Position numbers and translations under genes: made by a program. This document shows positions 4,581 through 64,000 of a stretch of DNA of 64,000 nt, in pieces (the stretch's first letter is position 1; each line of letters starts with the position of its first letter). Below the pieces are notes generated by a model that saw only the letters and a list, made by a program, of their open reading frames with translations, was not told the origin of the DNA and did no database searches. Source of the DNA: Pseudovirgaria hyperparasitica (Eukaryota); NCBI GenBank assembly GCA_010093815.1, contig ML996582.1. One strand, 5' to 3'.

Positions 4581-5286
4581 CACACACATCGTGTGCTGAA
4601 CACATCTACTCCGGCATTTGACGACAAACATATACCAATACGATTACACTACACTGCTACTGTCTATTACTTTGCTTTCTATATGGATGCAATGCCATGC
4701 CGTGCCATGCCTCAATCTCCCTCCTCCCTCTCTCTCTCCCTTCTCTCTCCTCCTCCCAAGACTCTCAATCTCAATCTCAACCTCAACCCCTCACACACAC
4801 ACACTCATCCCCCCCAAATCAGAACAAAACCCATCAACAAAGCGTATATATATCTGCGTATGCATAAGCAAAAGAAACGCCAAAAAACCCCCAAAATGTG
4901 CTATAAATCACGCAGAAAAAAGGGGGCCGCGGGACGACACGCTCAAATAAGTGTGCATTAAAATACAATAACCACCTAGCAGGCAGGTAACTGTATGTAG
5001 TAACACACAAAAAAAAACTCCAATCCGATCCGCTTCAAAACAAAACCCCAATCTAAAGAACCCTCGCTTACTCAAAACAATGCTTCGCTGCGTCGTCATG
5101 GGGACTAATTATTCGTGAGGAGTGGAGTGGAGTGGAGTTTCAGGCGACGGGGGGTGATGGTGTGCGTGTGTGGTGTATAAGAGCGAACAAGGAAGCAAGC
5201 AAAGCAAAGCAAGCCCCTAAAAAATGCAAGGCCTCTTCAAAAGACCCCCAAAAACAACTTTTTTCATGCTTTCAAAGGACCTATCC

Positions 5287-32339: not shown

Positions 32340-33070
32340 AGCTATAGAGGTTATTTGAATATAGATATCTTAGAGGTTATATTGAATGTTATTCTTTCAT
32401 ATAGACTAAGGGAGTATATATATATTTTAGAAGTTGTAGATAGATTCCTTACTTTAGAGTATAGCGAAACTTGGATATAATAGAGTTTATAGATGAATTT
32501 ATAACTATAGAGTATAGTAAAAGTTAGATCTTCTATAATAGAGAGATTAATTTACTATCTTATAGGCGGATAGAATTTTAATATATTATAACATATAGAG
32601 GAATTTCTTCTTCTTTAGTATAACGAAACTCGGAAATCTTATAATATATAGATTAATACCTTACTCTAGAGTATAGTATAACTTTCATTTCTTCGATTAG
32701 ATATATACATTTCATTCTCTATAGCATGATAAAACTCCTATATATGATAAGTTATAGATAAATATATAGAAGCATAATATAGAAGGAAACGTAGGTATCT
32801 TATCATAGTTGTATAATTTTCTTCTTTTACAACATAGCGAAATATACAGAGGTTATTATATGTACATGAATTTCTTCTTCTGGAGCTCGAAGGAACTTCG
32901 ATATCTTATGATATATAGATGAATCTAGTTGAGTTTAGTATAGGGAAACTTAGATACCTTATAGTAGATACAGGATTTTCTTCTTTTCGGGAATAAGAGA
33001 ATATCAAAAGATTACAATATATGGGTGATTTCTCCTCCTAAAGCTCGCCGAAACCTTGATATCGTACGGT
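32340..33070. repeat. Diverged 53-bp minisatellite, about 14 units, TpA-rich
   Basis: GAAAC-like cores recur at about 32466, 32519, 32625, 32678, 32731, 32786, 32839, 32892, 32945, 32998 and 33050. Approximate consensus GAAACTTAGATATCTTATAATATATAGATGAATTTCTTCTTCTAGAGTATAGC. Confidence 0.8.
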
Positions 33071-51129: not shown

Positions 51130-51547
51130 ATGTGCGATGCGGATCTGTGAGGGGGTTGTATTATATTCTGTATGATATCTAGTGAGAAGATTCGATAGGT
51201 TGCATATGTTACCACCCACTACTAACGCTCTGTGCTCTTAGACTTAGCCCCATACCTCATGCATCTTTTCTTCTACAAGACCTTTCTGCCCAGCATCATA
51301 TTCACACATAGAATATCGTTATACGCCCATGCGAAGAACCATTACCCTCCACAGACCTAACCTACACCAAAAAAGAATCTTTTCCTGCCAGGAATTTCAA
51401 CTCATACCCTCCCTCTGCAAAAATTTTCATATCAATCCATATCCACAATACCATACTCATAAACACACTAAATTCCATAAATTATATCACCGCCAAGCAC
51501 ACCGACATCCAAAATGACCATATTCCCTCGCCAACTCGTCTCACACC

Positions 51548-52323
51548 CAGACTTCCTATCAATCAGTTCAACTTCAATTCGACCGCCTCAAGAACTGGTT
51601 AGTTTAGTTCAGTTAAGGCCTCTTACTAAGAACTAACGCTTTAGTTTAACTTTAATTTAAGATAGTATTAAACTATAAATAATTAAACTAAACTAAAGTA
51701 TATATATATATAGACTATAGTATTAAGATTATTCTAATTTTATAAGTACTAGAGTTAGGCCGTAGGCTAACTTCCCTTATTTACTATATATATTAAATAC
51801 TATTACGTTAATAACTACGCGTTAATAACCTTAATATAGTATTCTAGCGGTCTATTTATACCCCTAAGGAGTACTCTTAAGATATATTTAAAAAGTAGTA
51901 TAGCTAGACCGAGTGTTCGTAGCGTAATATATATATAAAGAAGCCTTAAGATATATCTTAGAACCTAATACTAACTTAAGATACTACTACCTATAACTCG
52001 ACGATACTATCTCTCTCTAGTATTAGCCCTATTCTATATAAGTCTATATCTACTAATCTATATAGTTATCTAGTTCGAGAGCCCTCTAGGATAGAATTAG
52101 GTAATATAGATAGCGTAGAAGATCTAGATTATAACTCTATTATTAACCCTAATAATAAGTCTATATATAAAGGCATTAATTAGTAATATCTCTTATCCTT
52201 TATTAAGCCTATAGAGATACTTAAGCGGGCTAATAGCTTTAGCTAGATCTAGTAATACGGGTATTATCTCTAATAGATAAATAATAGAGCGAAGTACTAG
52301 TAGTATTATATATACTATTATTA
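51548..52323 (+). mobile_element. 5' portion of a RIP-mutated hAT-family DNA transposon, interrupted by LTR element A
   Basis: Candidate TIR CAGACTTCC at 51548 and subterminal AGTTC/GAACT repeats in both orientations. The frame at ~52170-52320 reads GIN**YLLSFIKP..S*I**YGYYL..KY**YYIYY, which reverts to the GIDW..SWIWQHGY..CxxC BED-finger start of fungal hAT transposases. Confidence 0.6.
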
Positions 52324-53990
52324 TGTTAGGACGGGAACCATAATAGACCTATATAGATTATTCTAATCCATGTAGCCACGTAGTGGCTAGAGCTAGGTTA
52401 AGTTAGCTAAGTTAAGCGAGGTTACTATATAAGTAGACCGTATAAACCGATTCCTACTTATTAGGAATTAACCTTATATAAGAGTAAGATTACTCTATAA
52501 ATACATTCCTATATCTCTCTATAAACTATTAGACTACTATCCTACGTCTTTACTCTTTATATTTTAATTTCTCTCTATATAGTATAACGGTAGCTTATAG
52601 AGATAGCTCCTACTACGCGCTATAATACCCGTGGCACTACCTTATATAAGAGACTCTCTCTAAATCTAAACGAAGAGAATAGTCTCTCTACGACTACCTC
52701 TACTAATAAGTATACTCTATAGACTATCGTACTAATAACTAGTACGGCATTCCATATAACCATAGAAGATTACCTAGATAATAAGGAAGAAGTCTATTAT
52801 ACTCCATCGCGGTCTAGTTTATACTATACTAGACCCATTCTTACTATAAGACTAGACCCTATTAACGTTAATAAATTAATTCGTTAGAACTAACTAACGT
52901 TAACCACGCCTTATAATAATATATATACTAAGCTATATACGGAGAGGTAGTATTAGGCTTAGCTTAAGTAGTAACTTCGCGAACTTGATAAAGTATAAGG
53001 ATAAACCGCTAGACTCGAAGCCGTACTACGCGCTTTAGTACTAGTAGTAACTAACCTATACTAATATAGACTAACTTAAGCCGAAATAGTCTAACTAAGT
53101 CTATTACTATTCTAGTTACCTTAGCCTAAGAAACTACCTTACTTTAACGGTAAAACTAGAAGAAGCTTTTATAAATAGGCTTACTAGTATAGCCGATTCT
53201 TCTACCTATTCACGAACGATAGTAATAAGATTAGGTTTATATAGAACTACCTAGATCTAACGCTATCTAAACGTTAGATAGTATATCGAATTAAATACCC
53301 TAAGAATATGTATAACTAGGACACGTTTACTAAATTCCTTCTTTAATACTTTAGTAATAGAGCCGAGCGACGCGAATAGGCTTAGAGCCATATCTTTAAG
53401 ACTTAATAGCGAGAGAGATAATCCCCGTTATAACTCCTTAAATACCTCCGACCTCTTTAGAGAGAAGCTAAGGAAGATTATATAGTTTAATAATATAACG
53501 ACTTTAAAAGGTCCCTTAACCCGAGTGTAAAGGAACGTATTAACCTTATAATATCTATCTCTACTAACCTTTAGGCACTCGCGAATCTCGTAGAACGATA
53601 TTAGTATATAATAAATAACTAACGTCGTATAGACGCACGACTATCCCTATTAATCTAATCCGATACGAAATTATCTAAAGAGGACCGGTTTAGTAATAGA
53701 TCGCGCGGAATACCTTATAGGCGCTACTACTCTATAAACTTAAGAAGACGAGGCCCGTACTACGGATCTTTCTACTAGTTAATATATCGAGACGCGAGAA
53801 ACGACTTATATAAACGACCTAAAGTTACCTACTATACCTATAGTAGGATAGGCTATATAGCACCCGAGTACCGCTTAGGGAAACTACCGAATACTAATAT
53901 AGATACTAAGTTAGTTATATACTATAAGTGCTAGTAGCTAGGACACATCGCGCCTAACTACCCGGTATATAATATAAAAAACTAACTATC
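52324..53990 (+). mobile_element. Ty3/gypsy element A, 5' part (5' LTR from TGTTAGG to about 52627, then gag), RIP-inactivated
   Basis: TG start; two RIP-altered CCHC knuckles at ~53825-53965 (YYTYSRIGYIAPEY; YYKC**LGHIAPNY); gag ends A AAA AAC TAA at 53976-53985. Confidence 0.8.
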
Positions 53991-54218
53991 TGTAAGAATA
54001 GGATTATTGGATAGTAGTGTAGCCAGATAGAACAATGGGGTGTATTCTGTCACAGAACGAATTACTACCGAACCCTTTCGGTAGGAATCCGAGAGTATAT
54101 ACATAAAGGGACGCCGATCTATCTAGCACGTGACTGTTTACCGCCCTTCACGTTACCTCCTAACCCTATTAGCTAAGGTACGTATAGGTCGAGTCCTACC
54201 TAAGGCTAAGTCCTAATA
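53991..54218 (-). repeat. 3' LTR of element B
   Basis: Matches 61146-61373 with 11 substitutions by my count. Confidence 0.95.
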
Positions 54219-54702
54219 ATTATCCCTTCCCTCTAGGAAGCTACCCTTAGCGACCTAGATCGTTACCTATCCCTATATCCCTATCCTAAGTCTCGTAAGA
54301 CCTTAGTCGTTCTCCACGCTTCGTCTTAGATACTTGCCGATATTCGCCGATCTAAGATTCATATAAGCGTTTTCCTAACAAACTAGATTTTATCCATCTT
54401 AACTTCTTATATAGGTGAGATTACCTAATTAGGCCTAGCGTATCACGTGATATGATTAGGTAAGCCCGGGTGCTACCTATATTAAAATCTTTTCTTAGAA
54501 ATATTCCTTTCTTCAAAAAACTTCTTAACTCTTTATAGAGTTTTTTAGATTATTAGGTATATCACCCGATCCTTATAGATATAGATTTATATAGATTTAC
54601 TACTATTTAGTGCGATTTACATAATTTACTAATTTTCGTGCCGTCCTTAGCTAGTAATAACACAATTCGTAATAATCTATATAAATTAATAATAATCGTA
54701 AT

Positions 54703-55684
54703 ATGGTTTCCCGAAATCTCGACGCTCTAAAGCAATCGGCGCGGAAATAGGCGCCTTCGAATAATCCCTATCTCGTATACGTTACTGACATGTCGAAAGC
54801 TATTAATCTACCCCGACCTAGGCCGGGCTCTAATAATCTAGCCATATATTATTATAGTTATCGCTTTCCGTCGTACATTGCTCACGGCGGTACTAAATCT
54901 ATAATATACGGCACTTACATAACCAAGAAGCGTTATTACTTATAGATATTTAAGCAAGTTCGAAGAACTTTACGCAGATTTACTTATATCGGTATAGATT
55001 ACTACTAGGCCTCTAGTAACCCCTACCGATAAGGAGCGTGGTACTACCGATCGCAACGCCTTAGAGAAGGCTTTCTACGAGCTATATACCTAAGGTAAGG
55101 GTTACGCCTAGGAGTACGATTCTAATAAGATCCGTAAGGGTTTATCGGAATCTCTTATAGCTATTATTACCGCGATTGCTAGGTAACATCGTTTTTCTTA
55201 AATCGTTATAGATTCTTACTAATATATATTAATCTCTATAATAGTGCTAAAATCTCTGCCACTTCGGACTTCTTTCTATACACCGGCGATATTAAAATTC
55301 CTAGAAAAGGTTCTAGTAAAAAGGCTAAGGTTCCTTCCTCGCGCGTGCTAAAGAGCCGTAAATTTAGGGAAGATAGCTCTAATCTAGAAGTTTCTATACT
55401 AATGGTATGTGGTTCTATACCGATCGTTAAATCTTTTCGCTGATTTATATAATTCTTAGCGTGCCCACGCCGGTCCGTCCCTCTCCGTCCCGGGTTCCGC
55501 CGCTCTATAGGTTTCTATAGAGGAGTTCATAGCTATAAGGCGCGCTATATAGAATTTATAGCGTCGGAACGAAAGGCTAGAGACTTATGTTATAAAGCTC
55601 TATACTATACTAAATAAGAACTAGTAGAAGGAATTAGATGTAACCATCGCGGTAATTAGTACTTCTACTCCTACTCCGACTTAA
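54703..55684 (+). pseudogene. Spliced accessory gene antisense to element B (Zn-cluster-like N-terminus, C-terminal coiled coil), RIP-mutated
   Basis: ATG 54703; introns about 54954-55008, 55183-55244 and 55405-55459 with compatible phases; all internal stops are TAG/TAA. Confidence 0.65.
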
Positions 55685-58600
55685 TCGGTTTAGATCTATA
55701 CTAATCGGTACTAATATGTCTCTTTTATCTGGCGTTTTGGTTTTTTCGGTTTTAATTTTAAAGCGATCTTACTTCTTCTAGATAGATTAGTGCGAGTTTA
55801 TATAGATCTATATAGATCTTCGTATTTTCTTTTAGCTTCCTTAATTTCATCTTTCTTTAATAATAACTTCTTTAATCTCTTTAGTAATCTATACCGATCT
55901 ATACCGATCGGCACCGATTTTCGATGTCCATTTCTCTTAGTAAATTATTTTTCTAAGTCTCTTTTTTAGTTAATTTTTTAAAGTTCTAAGTTCGAACTTT
56001 CTAAGGAAGTTCCTTAATTCCTTAGAATGTTTTAAAGATCTATGTCTCTTTTACCTTCTTCCTTTTAGGCGGCCGTCCTCGGCGCCGAACTATACTAAAA
56101 AATGTCGAATCGCCGTACTTTAGCATAATTCTCTACGATTCCGCGGCTTCCTTTACTAATTACTACTTATACGCTAATATCGCTGCTTTACTAATATATA
56201 TTACGGGTTCCCAAGTATCTTCGTTAGGATTATACCCTTTCTAACGAATTTTATATAGCCACGTGCCATCTTCGGCACGTTATTAGCCTAGTATCTACTT
56301 AACTTTATAGATATCCGCACCTCCTTACGTAACTACTTTATATAACGTCTATTCGGAACGATCCGGTAACGATAAGGTATGGAATAGCTCGAGAAGCGTG
56401 ATATAGAATATATTATGTATCTTTAACGTGGGAGGGAGTTTTAACTTATACGCCTAGTCATTAATTACACAAGTAACCTTAAATAGACCTATTATCGTGT
56501 AGTTAAGCTTCTTCTTCGGCCTAATACTACGAATATTTTTACTATTTAGTAAAACTTTATCTCTAACATTAAAGATTATAGGCTTTCTACCCTTATCATA
56601 GTGCGATTTACTATAATCTATAGTATCTTATAATAACTTTATAACGCTTCTTTACGTTTAGAATAGTTCTATTATAATCTCCGTCGCCTTAACGTTAGAC
56701 TACTCTAATTTATACTAAGTTCCTATAAACTATACTTTATAGTTTCGACCGAAGTTTGCTTCGAACGGACTTACGTGGGTTAACGCATATCGGCTGTTAT
56801 TATACGCGAATTCCGCGACATAGACTAACCTTACCTAGTTATCTTACTTATAGTTATAATATACGCGTAAATACGCCTTAACTATCTAATTCTACCGCTC
56901 TATCTATCTATCTATTTATAGGTGGAACGCGGTACTAAGTTTCCGCTTAATTCCCAGCGTATAGTAGAAATCCTTCTAAAACTTAGACGTTATCTACGGA
57001 CCTCTATCCGAAACTATGCCGTTCGGCGTACTGTAGAGCCGAACTACGTCACGAAGTAGTATATCTATAAGATCCGGTGCTTGGATCGTCTTCCTTATAG
57101 GGATATAGTATAATATCTTTATAAATCTATCTAAAACTACGAGTAAACTATTATAAATATACCTAAGACACTTACTTAGGGGCAGATCTATAATAAAATC
57201 TATCGACAATTCCTTCCATACTTCCTTTAGCATAGGTAATAGCCTTAATTCGCCATATAGTAAGTGTCTATATACTTTCGTATGCTGGTAAACGTTATAC
57301 GTTTTTATATAGTCTTTTATATATTTATAAAGACCCGGCTAGTCGTACGTCCTTCGGATTAAATCGACCGTCCTTATAATGCCGAAGTACCCTACTAACG
57401 CGTAATCGTGCTGTTCCCTTAAAACATTAATTTATAGGCCGCCTTCCGGCACGTAGAGTCGGCCTTAGAAGTAGATCGCGTCTAATCGTCGTTCCTACCT
57501 TAATAACCACGGCGGTTCTATAGCCATTCCCTTTATACTTATGACTTTCTTTACTAATACATCGGAATTCTAGGTAGATTTAATTAAGTCTTTGAGGATT
57601 TACTCTATTTCTTAGACGTTAGTTTAGATTACTTAATACCCGCTCTAATTCCCGCGGAGAGTCGCCGAAAGTGTCCTGGCTTCCGGCACTCTATTAGATA
57701 ACTAGTCTTTTAGTATCTATAGTATAGTATAGTCTAAATTACACTAACTATCTACGTTATTCTACGACGATTTCTCGTAATCTTTACGCCGTAATAGAGG
57801 ATCTGCTTTATTCTCTCTTCCAGCTTTATATAAGATTTTAAAGTTAAATATTAACATCCACTTAGCCTAACGTACTTATCGGCGATTAAGGACCTTAGTC
57901 GACATAAAGTAACGTAGATTTACGTGATCCGACAATAATTCAATCTAATATATAGAGCCTTCTAAATAATATCACCATTACTAAAAACTCTCGATAATTA
58001 CGAGTAGTTCCTAGTCGTGCGTATCATAACGCGTCTCTACATCCGCTATTTTACGGGAAAAGAAGGCGACCGGGTGCTATTACACCTTATCTTTCGCATC
58101 TTTATACGGTTAACTAATGATTCTAGCAATTACGAATCTAGATGCGTCTATTTCGACCCGAATATGCTTCTTAGGATTAAAATACCTAAGAATTAGCGTA
58201 GTTATAAAGTAATTCTTTAACGATCGGAACGCATCTCGCGCTTCCGGCGTTAACTATATCTCGACCGACTTAGCTTTACGCTATGCTCGCCCACCTATAG
58301 GGATTTTACCGCCATTCTCTATAAGTTTATTAAGCGGCGCCGTAATTCGTGAGAAACCTATAATAAATTTATGATAATAGTTCACGAAACCTATGAACGT
58401 CCTAATTTAACGTATAGTAGTAGGTTCTAGCCATTCTATAATGGTCTTAACACGCTCTAGCTCTATTTTAAGGCCGCCGTATATTATAATAAAGCCGAGA
58501 AACCTAACTTCTTATTAGTAAAACTTATATTTAGATAACTTTGCGTAGAGTTTATACTATCTTAAACGATTTAGCACCGATTTCACGTATTCTTCGTGAT

Positions 58601-61145
58601 CCTACATGCTATCGGAGTAAATTAGTATATTATCGAGGTAAACTACGCAGATCACATTAAGTAATCCTATAAGTGTAGTATTAATGTATCCTTAGAACGC
58701 TCCTAGCGCATTTATTAGCCTAAACGGCATAATAGTATACTTAAAATGACCATATCTAGTCCGAAATGCGGTTTTCTACTTATCTCCGCGACGGATTCGA
58801 AGCCGGTAATATATATCTCGTAAATCTAGCTTCGTAAAGTACTTTACCTTCATTAATTAGTCTAAAGATTCACTAACTAACGGTAATGGGTGACGATTCT
58901 TCTTAGTCACCGTATTTAGTGCTCGATAGTCGACGTATAGACGTAAACTTCCGTCTTTCTTCTTTATGAAGAGAATAGATACGCCGGCTAATAACGTACT
59001 ACAACGTATCTAGCCTCTTCCGAGATATTCTTTAATATATTTACGAAGAACTTTAAGTTCTAGTCTCGAAAGTAGGTAAAGTAGACTATAAGGGATGTCT
59101 ACTCCCTCTTCGAGCTCAATCTTTAGCTTATACGGCCTATGGTCAGGGAGAAGTAACGCGTCCCCTACCGAAAACACATCCGTATACTACGAATATACGT
59201 CGGGTAGCGTGTCTTTACCCCGATTATTACCATCCTCTTCGTCTTCGTCGACGATCGATAGGGATATAAGATAGACTAGCGATGATCGGGTCCGCACGGC
59301 GAGGTTCCATGCCTCCTTACTAATAGTTACGACTTACTAGTATAATTTACCGCGATATCGACGGAACGTTAATATCTCCTTCTAAAAATCAAGGATTAGG
59401 TTTAGGCGTTTAAGCTAAGGCATCCCTAGAATCATATTCTATTAGCTAATATTAGCCACGATAAATTCATTAGACATCTACTATTTTATTATCTTTAAGT
59501 TATGAACTTCGTAATTCGTTATAGTTTTACCTAAAGTTCTAACTTTATATCTATTAACTATAATGGTTCGGCCAACTTTACCGAGATCGTATAATAATCT
59601 ACACTCCTTAGCGAGAATCGACGAAATATAGTTATCTTCTACACTAGTGTCCACGAGGGCCTATATAGTTTTATTACTATTTACTATAGGTAACGATACT
59701 TTCAGTAATATTAGGTCTTTACTCGCCGGGAGGCGCTACGGCTCCTCCTAAGTATATATAATTTAGCTAAGAACGCGGTTAGGTCTTGCGTACTAGCCTA
59801 TTCTTTTTTCGGATTCTTATAGTTAGGCGAAATATATCCCTTTTCTCCATACTTATAGTAATAAAGTGCGCTATAATCCTGCTATTTTACGACAGGCGTT
59901 ACATTTAAGCCTATACCTTATCCTTTTCCGCGTTAGGAACCACCGCCTCGATTATTTCGGTGTCCTCTTAACGCGTTTCTACCCCGATTTACGCTCTTCT
60001 AGCGTTAATCGCGGTAAGGTTACTCTTAATTGAACGTATTCGATCGACCTCGTTTCTAACCCGTGTGGGGTTCGTCGGTTTTACCTAGAGAGCCGCGTTT
60101 CTTAAGGATGCGGTAGTATTCGTTAGCTTTCTCCTCTAATTCGTATAGATGGTTAAAACTTAATAATACTATTCCTAATCTTTCGTGGATTAACGGGAGT
60201 AGTGCTTCGCGAAACTAGAATATGCGAATATTTTCCTATAGTATAGGGATATTATCCTAGAGGTTTTATAGGTATTATAGTAGTTAAGTAGGTGTCTAGT
60301 TCGGTCATTATGCCACGCTTCTTAACTTAGATAGTACCTTTCTTTCGCGTTCTCCGTTAGTTCCGAGGGTATTTAGTATAAATATAGCTAAATGTTTCTA
60401 GGTTGTCGCCGATAGTAGCTTAACTTCCTTCTATCTATCCTATTAATCGCGGGATTATAAACCTAAGTAACGTTCTCCGAATAAAATGCGTTATACTTCG
60501 GTAGAAAAGAGCATAGGGTTATCGAGGAAGTACTTCTCGCAGTCTCTCTTCCAATCTTTCCACTCCTTTTAGTTCTTCCCTATAAATGTGGTCGGATCTT
60601 TAGGTTTCGGTACACCTAAGGAAGGAGTAGGGTAAATCGGTAACGAAGCGGCCGGGTGTACGGTAGATTATCGCAACTCTAATGGTGGGTAAACTAATTC
60701 CGCCTAAATTAGTATAGGAAGTCGTCTACCTACTATCGTTCCGCGTAGTCTTTCAAGAGACTCGTTAAGTTCTCGTCGTTTTGCGAGGAGTTTCGCACGT
60801 TCGGTCTATTCTTTAAGGATCTATATCTCTTAGGCTTGATTAGCGATATACTCCTATAGTTCGGCGATTAATGGTTATGATTCCTCGTGTAGCTCTACCA
60901 CGACTCGTTATCCAGCTTCCTATCGTAGGAAGTCGCTTAGTATATCTACCATTTCCTTATTAGAAAGTTCCGTGATTCGGTCGGACATCTCTACTTCTCT
61001 ATTAAGAATAGCCGGATTTAATACTAATTATAGAGGATCCCTATTATTTAATACAGTGTTACTTATCCCTATAGTAGATCGTGTCGACCTTCTTAGTTCT
61101 AGTTAGACTATCTTAACTATAGTACTATATAGGTAGTAATTCGAA

Positions 61146-61373
61146 TGTAAGAATAGGATTATTAGATAGTAGTGTAGCCAGATAGAATAATGGGGTGTAT
61201 TCTATCATAGAACGGATTACTACCGAACTCTTTTGGTAGGAATCCGAGAGTATATACATAAAGGGACGCCGATCTATCTAGCACGTGACTGTTCACCGCC
61301 CTTCACGTCACCTCCTAACCCTATTAGCTAAGGTACGTGTAGATCGAGTCCTACCTAAGGCTAAGTCCTAATA
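61146..61373 (-). repeat. 5' LTR of element B
   Basis: Direct repeat of 53991-54218, followed by the CTATC TSD. Confidence 0.95.
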
Positions 61374-61378
61374 CTATC

Positions 61379-63169
61379 TATAAGGAACTCTCGCGACTTA
61401 TAGACGTAACTAAAATAGAGGGATAACTAGCTAACTAGTATATCGAACTATAGGCTGGGCCTATTAAGGTCCCTTATAGATAATATTAGACCGTAATACT
61501 TAATAGCGGTTTAGCTACTAACGTTATATCGACTTAACGAGTATAAGAACTTAACATTAATATTTAAGTACTAATAGGTACTACCTTCTATAGTATTGAT
61601 AGTCCTATTAAATTATAGGGTATCTATACTATTAAATATAGTATCTAGGACAGCGGGGGGAAGTAGAAACCCTACTACTTAACCTTTATTATAGTAGATA
61701 GTCCCTTTAATATAATCCTTAGTATACCGTAGCTCGAAAAATATAATCCGAAACTAGACTTTATCTAGAAAATAGCTGGCTAGCGCATATACCTACTATA
61801 ATAGAATCTAGTATAGCTAGTTGACGATGAATAATTCTAGAAGGACTATAAAAAGATAATCTCCGCTATCTACGTCCTCTTACTTACTTAAAATAGAGAG
61901 CTTAGTATTAAAGTAGATAAAAACCTACTATATTAGTATAAAATATACTAATATATTATATTAGCGATCGACTCGTCCGAATTACCTTAATACTAACCTA
62001 CTAACCTTACTATTAACCTCGAAGACGGTTAATAACCCCTATACGGACCTATATACCCTCTATTAGAACCCGAGCTATAGGTCCTCCGAGAATATATTAA
62101 AAAGAACCTTACGCGAGAATAGATTAGGCCTAGTATATCTCTAGCCGGAGCTCTAATCCTCTTTATAAAGAAGAAGGATAGGAGTCTCTATCTATATATT
62201 AACTACCGTAGCCTAAATAATATTACACGAAAGAATCATTATCTACTACCTCTTATCTCTAAGTCTATTAATAGACTAGGGCGCGCGAAGATCTTTATTA
62301 AGCTTAATCTACGCGACATCTACTACCGCCTACGTATTAAGAAGGGCGATAAGTAGAAAACGGCGTTTAGGACCCGTTATAGATACTTTAAGTATATAGT
62401 AGTCCCTTTTAGACTAACTAACGCGCTAGAAACCTTCTAAGTATATATTAATAACGCGCTAGTAGGTCTACTCGATATAACGTGCATCGTATACCTTAAT
62501 AACATCCTTATCTTCTCTAATAATAAAGAAGAATATATCTAGTACGTATGCGTAGTCCTAGATAGGCTAGAAAAATATAAGCTATATATTAAGCTATCTA
62601 AATATAAGTTCCACTAGGACCACGTTAACTTCCTTAGCTTTATTATTACTAATTAAGGTATAACTATAGAAAGGGATAGGGTCGCTACTATCGTGGACTA
62701 GCCTAAACTAAAATCGGTTTAAGATATACGTGTCTTTATTAGATTCGCTAATTACTACTAAAAATTTATTAAGTATTTCTCCTGGCTAGTAGCACCGCTT
62801 AACGCGTGTACTACTACTATAGATTCGTCTATTACGGTCCGCGGTAGATAGAAATAGTATAATATTAAATTATAGTCTATAGAATTATTAGAAGGTAAAA
62901 GGGCCTCCTTCGAGAAAATCAAAGAGGTATTTATAACTACCCTATTACTAGTATACTTTAACCTAACTAAATCTATCCGCGTCGAAACCGACGCGTTAGG
63001 ATTTATAATCTTAGGCATTCTCTTCTAGCCTAGACTAACTAAGTCTAAAAAGGTCTAATAGTATCTAGTTACGTTCTTCTTACGTAAAATAGTCGATATT
63101 AAGACTAGATATACTATCTATAACTAAGAGCTACTAGTAATAGTAGAGTTATTTAAATAGTAGTAATAT
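61379..63169 (+). mobile_element. Ty3/gypsy element A, pol part (protease, RT, start of RNase H), RIP-inactivated
   Basis: ILNSG (ILDSG), KKKDRSL, KTAFRTRY, YLNNILIF (YLDD), RVETDA, ELLVIVELFK; the frame breaks at ~63170. Confidence 0.9.
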
Positions 63170-64000
63170 TATTATGGAAGGCCGCTCCTGCAGCCCCACA
63201 TGTATGTATCCCTAGCTCGATTACATGGCTTTATTATATATTTAAGGAGGGCGTTTTCCTTGGTCATTCTACTCGGTGCGCTTCCCCTATCACTAATATT
63301 CGACTATTCGACCTTTCCTTACGTTCATGGGCCTCTATGGGTATTGATTATTAGGCTTAGCTATTAAAGAATTGATTAAGAGTATTATATAGACCCGTCC
63401 TATCGTAAAAGAGAACTAATAAGAAGTCATGCGTTTAAAGAGAACTTATAATACCTAGGAGAGATACTTATGAGTTCGTCGCGACTACTATACTAAGAAT
63501 ATAGCTATTTATAAAAGGGATACACGTGGCGATAGCTTACTATAATTTTAGAGGTCGTACCCGGACTACGAACTTATAGGGGGAGATTAGGACTCTAAAA
63601 CTAGCTTAGGGGAAGTATATAACGTGCCTAATAAGGTAGTCTAGACTTACTAGATCGAAGCTACGAGTCCGGAAAATAGGGAGTCCGGAGTCGCTAGGGG
63701 CTAGCCTCTTAAAAGTAGCCGTAAAAAGTATACGCATGCTAACACGGGTGATAGCGCGACTCGAAAATGTCTTAGGGGAATAGGATATAAAATAGAGCTA
63801 GATGAAGTAGTAAAGAAGAGTTCAAAAACGATAAATATAACCTGTTTAGTACTACTATAGCTATCATTTATAAACACGGCCATACGAGTATACCACTTTA
63901 GGAACGCCTTACACGAAGATAATAATATAAGTAGGATACCGTGAACCTTATATCGATAAAGACGATAGTAATAGTTCACCTTATAAAGGGATTAGTTAAC
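63170..64000. mobile_element. Probable further insertion (element C) in the RNase H of element A; runs off the window
   Basis: Pol similarity stops abruptly at TATTATGG (RIP form of the LTR-like start TGTTATGG); the sequence that follows is unrelated and TpA-rich. Confidence 0.5.

Follow-up and report, generated by a model that had tools for sequence, protein, structure and literature searches.

Positions 54703–55684 (+) of a 64,000-nucleotide (nt) stretch of Pseudovirgaria hyperparasitica DNA (contig ML996582.1 of assembly GCA_010093815.1, hereafter the window) probably hold the remnant of an accessory gene, split by introns and inactivated by repeat-induced point mutation (RIP), that is read antisense to the long terminal repeat (LTR) retrotransposon around it and that belonged to the lineage of this retrotransposon. 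The latter, named element B here, is a Ty3/gypsy chromovirus that lies on the minus strand, complete and degraded by RIP. In the B copy itself, the antisense gene is a dead relic, killed by RIP and without present function, because nine stops interrupt it and no Cys codon remains. The ancestral product would have comprised about 260–300 amino acids (aa). From N- to C-terminus, it would have had a Zn2Cys6-like module rich in Cys, a helical part, a stretch rich in Lys and Ser that resembles a nuclear-localization signal, and a coiled coil. Its gene, interrupted by three short spliceosomal introns, would have lain in antisense orientation in the interval from pol to the polypurine tract. The open reading frame (ORF) and its splice pattern, taken alone, are no better than chance in RIP-mutated DNA, and it is only through comparison with relatives that the observation exceeds chance.

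A Four-Exon Antisense Gene Model in Element B

The initial annotation, made from the letters of the window, had described an ATG at 54703 and four exons joined by three phase-compatible introns, in a region of about 1.8 kb between the pol stop (near 56040) and the 3′ LTR. The region does have this length, with the polypurine tract at 54219–54234, and the whole model, which lies inside 54235–56040 on the strand opposite gag-pol, is present at the coordinates proposed, with the intron ends described. Exon 1 of the ORF model (54703–54953, with an alternative end at 54945) corresponds to the Cys-rich domain, now Tyr-rich. It is followed, as first drawn, by an intron 1 in phase 2 (54954–55008, GCAAGT..TAG), with an alternative, in phase 0, that starts at 54946 and ends at 54997 or 55033. 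Exon 2 (55009–55182), helical and interrupted by two stops, is the counterpart of exon 2 in L002 and L003, the two closest relatives of B. Intron 2 (55183–55244; 62 nt, GTAACA..TACTAAT..TAG) is in phase 2 and intron 3 (55405–55459; 55 nt, GTATGT..GCTGAT..TAG) in phase 0, exactly as the second and third introns of L002 and L003. Between them, exon 3 (55245–55404) is Lys/Ser-rich and free of stops, the third exons of L002 and L003 being Lys/Arg/Ser-rich, and the coiled-coil-like exon 4 of the ORF model (55460–55684) holds five TAG stops ahead of the terminal TAA at 55682–55684. All features of the model are on the plus strand. Together, the exons amount to 810 nt, all in phase, in agreement with the product of about 270 aa that had been announced, and the nine internal stops are, as had also been noted, of the TAG and TAA types only (eight TAG and one TAA, no TGA). 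The 256 sense codons include no Cys.

Intact Antisense Genes in the Closest Relatives

Using the reverse transcriptase (RT)-to-chromodomain part of B as query, we obtained 4372 proteins at E ≤ 1e−20 among the 8000 candidates scored. Named matches include Curvularia and Venturia, and many of the pol relatives lie on metagenome contigs of 6–7 kb. An alignment of 16 pol relatives led to 78 metagenome loci (L001 and so on), all oriented with pol on the plus strand, and in many of these pol is directly followed by an antisense ORF whose product combines a cluster of Cys with a basic stretch, a long helix, and a tail of acidic residues. BLAST links among the antisense ORFs define three families, I, II, and III, which are unrelated to one another in sequence; family III consists of L002, L003, L009, and L029. 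In a FastTree phylogeny of pol (42 rows), B is sister to L002 and L003 with a Shimodaira–Hasegawa-like support of 99, and these three fall within a ten-row clade together with L009 and L029. Elsewhere in the tree, family I forms one clade and family II another.

The antisense gene of L002 (exons of 294, 137, 142, and 201 nt; introns of 71, 47, and 51 nt in phases 0, 2, and 0) encodes a stop-free product of 257 aa, and its introns have GTAGGT, GTATGT, and GTACGT donors and CTGAC or CTAAT branch sites. The automatic, length-maximizing model of this gene reads through intron 1, which we kept as spliced because L003 and L009 have donors at the same place. The gene of L003 (exons of 267, 227, 211, and 186 nt; introns of 49, 72, and 58 nt, all with GTAAGT donors, again in phases 0, 2, and 0) encodes a product of 296 aa. 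It starts with an ATG at 4748 and lies between pol and a polypurine tract (5211–5225) that stands ahead of the LTR and is comparable to that of B. Both genes show the order of exons that had been read in B (Cys-rich, helical, Lys-rich and, in the relatives, also Arg- and Ser-rich, then coiled coil), and in both, exon 1 ends exactly two codons past the last Cys. In L009, a GTGAGT donor occupies the same intron 1 place (phase 0, two codons past the last Cys), and L029 has an exon 1 of the same type. The exon 1 motif of family III can be written as C-x2-C ... C-x2-C-x5–7-C, two codons, and a GT donor. A database search with the L002 ORF returned only the identical ENA entry, and a search of the ESM Atlas with exon 1 of the L003 ORF gave a best score of 0.85 and no Pfam family common to the hits.

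Partial Agreement of the Putative B Gene with the Family III Layout

On the basis of the tree, of the layout and of several overlapping tests, the ancestor of B probably carried an antisense gene of the family III type. Where exon 1 of L002 reads NNP-C-x2-C, that of B reads NNP-Y-x2-Y, and, with its alternative end, it closes with Y-x2-Y-x6-Y-L-stop, two codons past the last Tyr of this triad, followed, in most copies, by GT at 54946. Position 54946 is A in B and G in 76% and 91% of the depth of other copies in X1 and X2, respectively, which are two DNA sequencing runs of one sample. If the donor is placed at 54946 and the acceptor at 54997 or 55033, the frame is maintained and the intron is in phase 0, as it is in the relatives; the donor at 54954 preferred in the initial annotation keeps the frame as well, in phase 2. 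Intron 1, flagged from the start as the least certain of the three, stands with respect to the frame and not with respect to its exact borders, for which 54946 fits the phase of the relatives better than 54954. At 54955, nearly all the depth of other copies has T, which turns the GCAAGT donor into GTAAGT, but this says nothing on the ancestral state because RIP also runs C-to-T. Tyr is encoded by 11 of the 79 codons of exon 1 and by 109 of the 1597 codons of gag-pol, an enrichment in exon 1 (Fisher p = 0.024). Finally, the distance from ATG to polypurine tract is 468 nt in B versus 463 nt in L003, and that from pol to tract about 1.8 versus 1.86 kb. The near-equal tract-to-ATG distance, between sequences that cannot be aligned, hints at a constrained upstream (promoter) region, and the corresponding interval of B (54235–54702, +, about 468 nt) would comprise the promoter and 5′ untranslated region (UTR) of the antisense gene.

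Several observations weigh against an antisense gene. They would be easier to accommodate if the 1.8 kb were a non-coding 3′ region (a long 3′ UTR or a regulatory spacer), the exons, introns and Tyr residues being chance products of RIP-biased sequence, an explanation that we consider improbable without being negligible. In a search for spliced frames by dynamic programming (up to three introns, GT/GC..AG, of 45–90 nt), the best frame at the gene has 205 stop-free codons, and 20 control readings (ten tiles of RIP-mutated window DNA, both strands) reach 122–189. Stop density barely marks coding in this DNA, since 104 of the 1701 codons in the true gag-pol frame of B are stops, versus 109 stops in one of the antisense frames of gag-pol. 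A codon-usage model trained on gag-pol gives −9.2 for the antisense gene, a value of little power because gag itself fails the model (near −14), which makes the latter uninformative. Pfam has no match to the exons, nor to 54221–56040 translated in all six frames, and the frame holding exons 2 and 4 matches none of 1.84 billion representative proteins. No homolog was detected by tblastn either, the six frames of the B 3′ region reaching E = 1.2 at best against the 78 loci. Moreover, the donor of intron 2 (GTAACA) is weak, and the relatives are metagenome contigs. In a plain alignment, the similarity between the B model and L002 is not significant (z = −0.33), and neither is that between L002 and L003, which indicates that homology rests on layout and that the protein evolves too fast for sequence tests. 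We also devised a RIP-aware score, in which a codon may represent any residue that it would encode once a T or an A of a TpA dinucleotide is reverted; in its raw form, the score of B is matched by 14 of 60 control stretches.

Against a non-coding origin, L002 and L003 hold intact genes of the same layout in the same place, with which B agrees in the phases of introns 2 and 3, in the end of exon 1 and in the distance between ATG and tract. In addition, the composite motif of the relatives (Y or C at the Cys positions, then GT or AT) has a single occurrence, at exon 1, among 3,636 codon positions in the 3′ region and none among 20,830 control positions, that is, once in all 24,466 RIP-mutated codon positions of the window and exactly at exon 1 (101 of 3000 dinucleotide shuffles contain it). 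As for the RIP-aware score, raw values are not comparable across stretches because the mutation level differs from one stretch to another. The observed score is reached by 25 of 1000 shuffles with L002, 14 of 1000 with L003, and 2 of 1000 with both; normalized to its own shuffles, the score for L002 plus L003 has z = 3.1, a value reached by 1 of the 60 controls. The three tests, each with p of about 0.03 when taken singly, overlap one another. A looser scoring, in which every T and A could be reverted, was discarded as too permissive (z about 2 with the "max" variant, no signal with the "mean" variant).

The Segment in Other Copies of the Element

Uniqueness of the segment to the B copy had been named in the initial annotation as a finding that would speak against an element-encoded gene. 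An origin by capture of part of a host gene, or by nested insertion at a later date, in this copy alone, would agree with the lack of a second copy of the segment in the window. However, when contigs of X1 and X2 were aligned at ≥80% likeness, 12,821 and 4,252 contig pieces, respectively, were obtained, which left none of the 30 bins between the flank and the integrase region empty, every bin of the segment included, with a depth that does not give the share of B copies carrying the segment. At the listed variant sites within the gene, 19–40 different X1 contigs have another letter, which implies that many diverged copies include the segment. The latter is moreover enclosed in the frame formed by the LTRs, polypurine tract and target-site duplication, a scan of the 3′ region of B for internal repeats returned short AT-rich matches only and no repeat borders, and L002 and L003 have the same layout. 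These observations support a segment proper to the element family over an insertion found in the B copy alone, and the capture or nested insertion of foreign DNA is extremely improbable and largely refuted already.

Two further runs, X3 and X4, gave six and four pieces, respectively, none of which spans an intron. X3, from another sample with the same species label, includes a 2,840-nt contig of depth 2603 that aligns over window positions 54085–54214. This 130-nt stretch is like the LTR of B, with 15 differences, and the sequence beyond it is GC-rich and unmutated; the contig could correspond to an LTR fragment within a highly covered or highly expressed locus.

Three Families of Antisense Genes in Related Elements

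Antisense genes combining a Zn2Cys6-like motif and a coiled coil were found in 18 of the 78 loci, and an antisense Cys-cluster gene is present in 10 of the 30 loci that extend at least 700 nt past the recognized pol end. A scan of the 78 loci for a Cys6 pattern gave 17 matches, 15 of them antisense; the two sense-strand matches lie in runs of closely spaced Cys and His. Besides family III, these genes make up family I (L044, L045, L046, L047, L053, L059, L075, and L078) and family II (L026, L032, L048, L055, L066, and L069). Family I is characterized by six invariant Cys (C-x2-C-x6-C-x8–9-C-x2-C-x6–7-C) followed by a long helix, and has 312 database relatives at E ≤ 0.001, one of which, from Sporormia, is named in UniRef with a Zn(2)-C6 fungal-type domain. 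The family I profile did not detect family II, L002, or the B model (at most 3.7 bits). In four family I loci (L045:5638–6156, L047:5377–5952, L059:5608–6126, and L078:4586–5119, all on the minus strand), the antisense ORF overlaps the 3′ end of pol tail-to-tail by about 40–95 nt, and the family I C-termini read G-S-S in 7 of 9 aligned members, the others being G-N-S and S-Q-G.

In family II, the antisense genes of L026 and L069 contain canonical fungal introns, whose donors read GTAAGT or GTGCGT and whose branch sites read CTAAC or CTGAC. The initial annotation had argued that introns survive retrotransposition when they are antisense to the genomic RNA, and canonical introns in multi-copy retroelements fit this argument. 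Such introns, complementary to the genomic RNA, would find no usable splice sites there, for which reason they would be retained and copied into each new insertion.

A few loci have other features downstream of pol. Long antisense ORFs at L013:5012–6872 (−), with a Cys/His knuckle tail, and at L055:9553–10536 (−), of 328 aa, look like DNA-transposase genes, and probably represent nested or neighboring elements and not accessory genes. In L001 (296–1181, minus frames), pol is followed by tandem repeats, one frame of which yields "ALRPGQ(Y/C)P(L)" several times over; they recall the tandem arrays that PMC11963269, in the passage concerned, describes in pol-to-LTR regions of the plant element Retand.

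Resemblance of the Encoded Proteins to Zinc-Cluster Proteins

Zn2Cys6 clusters (PF00172) follow the spacing rule C-x2-C-x6-C-x5–12-C-x2-C-x6–8-C. Family I has this spacing, and B departs from it: even with Tyr read as former Cys, the first triad of B exon 1 lacks its third residue at x6, and the loop exceeds 20 residues. Of the Cys cluster that the initial annotation had reconstructed by reverting TAY to TGY, what holds is that Tyr stands where the relatives have Cys; strict membership of the Zn2Cys6 class was not established. The Pfam Zn_clus model is found in the ORFs of 6 of 17 relatives, with 10.6–17.5 bits and in no case the gathering score of 21 bits, and has no match in B. When the family I profile was compared with the PDB, 7 of 23 weak rows were Zn2Cys6 proteins (best E = 0.17). 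At the structural level, residues 28–62 of a predicted family I model superpose on Lac9, Leu3, and Pho7 at 1.5–1.9 Å over 32–35 residues, and 13 of the 16 rows listed by Foldseek for this model are Gal4-type Zn2Cys6 proteins, including 6gys, which we take to be Cep3. Family III has far longer loops than family I, and an AlphaFold model of its exon 1, built from a four-row alignment, is unusable (predicted local distance difference test score of 43).

Judged from these sequences and predicted folds, "Zn2Cys6-like" is a fair label for family I. Gal4-type proteins (Gal4, Ppr1, Put3, Leu3, Hap1, Lac9, and Pho7) associate a Zn2Cys6 cluster with dimerization through a coiled coil, and family I shares with them the Cys spacing and the long helix. 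Our best guess for the mechanism would be a Gal4-like dimeric DNA binder. From architecture only, the likeliest activity is that of a small dimeric DNA-binding protein, expressed from its own promoter, that would regulate transcription or chromatin of the element. The absence of enrichment in CGG/CCG half-site pairs upstream of the antisense genes of five relatives counts against such an activity.

Relation to Known Antisense Genes of Retroelements

As a kind, antisense accessory genes are already known, both from plant gypsy elements and from the fungal gene brtn. The latter belongs to Boty (BcGypsy1), a chromovirus of Botrytis cinerea, and was reportedly the subject of work by Zhao and coauthors in 2011 (Virology 417:248). 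According to the relevant passages of PMC7264820, PMC8365987, and PMC4227169, brtn is an antisense gene located between pol and the 3′ LTR of Boty, in Botrytis and Sclerotinia, and a BRTN-like transcript is mentioned for Monilinia in PMC5987419. As these passages depict it, brtn is similar to the B gene in that it is an additional gene, oriented against gag-pol and placed after pol and before the 3′ LTR, in a chromodomain-bearing gypsy element of a fungus. Families I–III are placed beside it by such descriptions of position and orientation, and not by sequence. Among plant elements, most copies of maize Grande (gene23), rice RIRE2, and Silene/angiosperm Retand contain an antisense ORF after pol and ahead of the 3′ LTR; the product of Grande is nuclear and expressed from its own promoter, and the TRP28 domain of Retand is predicted to bind DNA (relevant sections of PMC7264820 and PMC11963269, two articles in which the word "intron" occurs 0 times). 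As far as these sections go, the plant elements share with B the position and antisense orientation of the gene, but they belong to another host kingdom, are not chromoviruses, and have TRP28 instead of a Cys6 cluster.

A more distant parallel comes from vertebrate retroviruses. The HBZ gene of human T-cell leukemia virus type 1 (HTLV-1) is spliced, and its product has a bZIP domain. HBZ and APH-2, of HTLV-1 and HTLV-2, respectively, are presented in part of PMC11963269 as antisense retroelement genes with nuclear, dimerizing products that are like transcription factors. With a bZIP domain instead of a Cys cluster, and with vertebrate retroviruses as carriers, they provide an analogy only for the B gene. 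Among the papers listed by a full-text search of main texts, none joined "binuclear" and "LTR retrotransposon," a Morchella genome paper was the sole listing for Zn2Cys6 together with antisense and gypsy retrotransposon, and a review of fungal LTR retrotransposons (PMC3248453) contains neither "antisense" nor "zinc." Subject to the content of the brtn paper, the intron-bearing structure, the architecture of zinc cluster plus coiled coil, and the occurrence in three chromovirus lineages seem to add to what was known.

A wider scenario can be put forward tentatively, as a possibility that we regard as rather doubtful at this stage: several fungal chromovirus lineages may encode their own Gal4-like transcription factor, composed of a Zn2Cys6-type cluster, a nuclear-localization stretch and a dimerizing coiled coil, from an antisense gene with its own promoter, intron-bearing in some of them, and this factor may bind element DNA to switch on or protect transcription, B being a RIP-fossilized member that once had a very high copy number. 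If this were true, these lineages would possess a fungal counterpart of HBZ, whose fast evolution would have left three sequence-unrelated families with one architecture. The recurrence of the gene (18 of 78 elements, and 312 relatives of family I) gives a concrete handle on the open question of antisense accessory function, and the architecture of a small dimeric zinc-cluster DNA binder is directly testable. The antisense introns would be a natural version of the logic of engineered retrotransposition reporters, by which a split gene can persist in a retroelement that is copied through RNA. With respect to annotation, such genes are invisible to Pfam and in RIP-degraded copies, and long pol-to-LTR spacers in the AT-rich isochores of fungi should therefore not be assumed to be non-coding.

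Anatomy and Setting of Element B

Element B lies in the right end of the window (about 51–64 kb), which is AT-rich, with a GC content of 0.32–0.41 versus about 0.5 elsewhere. It is flanked by identical 5-base target-site duplications, CTATC, at 53986–53990 and 61374–61378. Its 3′ LTR (53991–54218, −) and 5′ LTR (61146–61373, −) form a 228-nt direct repeat with 95% identity, and the polypurine tract that adjoins the 3′ LTR (54219–54234, −) reads AGAGGGAAGGGATAAT as its reverse complement. The RIP-degraded gag-pol (56041–61145, −) is a single frame for protease, RT, RNase H, integrase, SH3, and chromodomain, as deduced from a Pfam scan of the read-through translation in which in-frame stops were read as X. 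The order of Pfam domains is gag-asp_proteas, RVT_1 (4.7e−25), RT_RNaseH, Integrase_H2C2, rve, and SH3_Tf2-1; altogether, RVT_1 is accompanied by seven more families, including two RNase H models and the zinc finger and core of integrase. The chromodomain of this mutated copy scores 18.4 bits with Chromo (E = 0.0021), under the cut-off of 25.1, and the listed pol homologs carry PF00385.

The pol frame of B ends near 56040 with an RGRPPKRKK tail, and the pol homologs stop at the same RGRPxKR motif. This end has a bearing on a further explanation, very improbable in our opinion, according to which the region downstream was formerly a sense-strand coding sequence, either prolonging pol at its C-terminus or forming a third ORF of the env type, and the antisense reading is incidental. 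A 92-codon open stretch on the minus strand (55236–55514) is in line with sense coding, as are the values given by the gag-pol codon model, −0.9 to +12 for the minus frames versus −49 to −55 for the plus frames, a difference that may reflect strand composition. However, the minus frames contain 39–62 stops in 606 codons and have no Pfam match, the motif at which the pol homologs end is present in B just before about 56040, and the long intact frames of L002 and L003 in this region are on the antisense strand. Between the stop of the antisense gene and that of pol, B has a spacer of 356 nt (55685–56040); L003 and L002 have counterpart gaps of 328 and 224 nt, respectively.

B was apparently inserted into a second RIP-degraded gypsy element, on the plus strand, which occupies 61379–64000 of the window and perhaps also 51300–53985. 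This element has an RT-like frame at 62123–62356, and its own 3′ region falls beyond the window. The only other matches to B inside the window are between its RT region and this neighboring element, with 67–68% DNA similarity at 62293–63182. Farther away, in surroundings of normal GC content, an AT-rich array at 32427–33030 contains at least ten tandem copies of a 53-nt unit, 61–75% alike.

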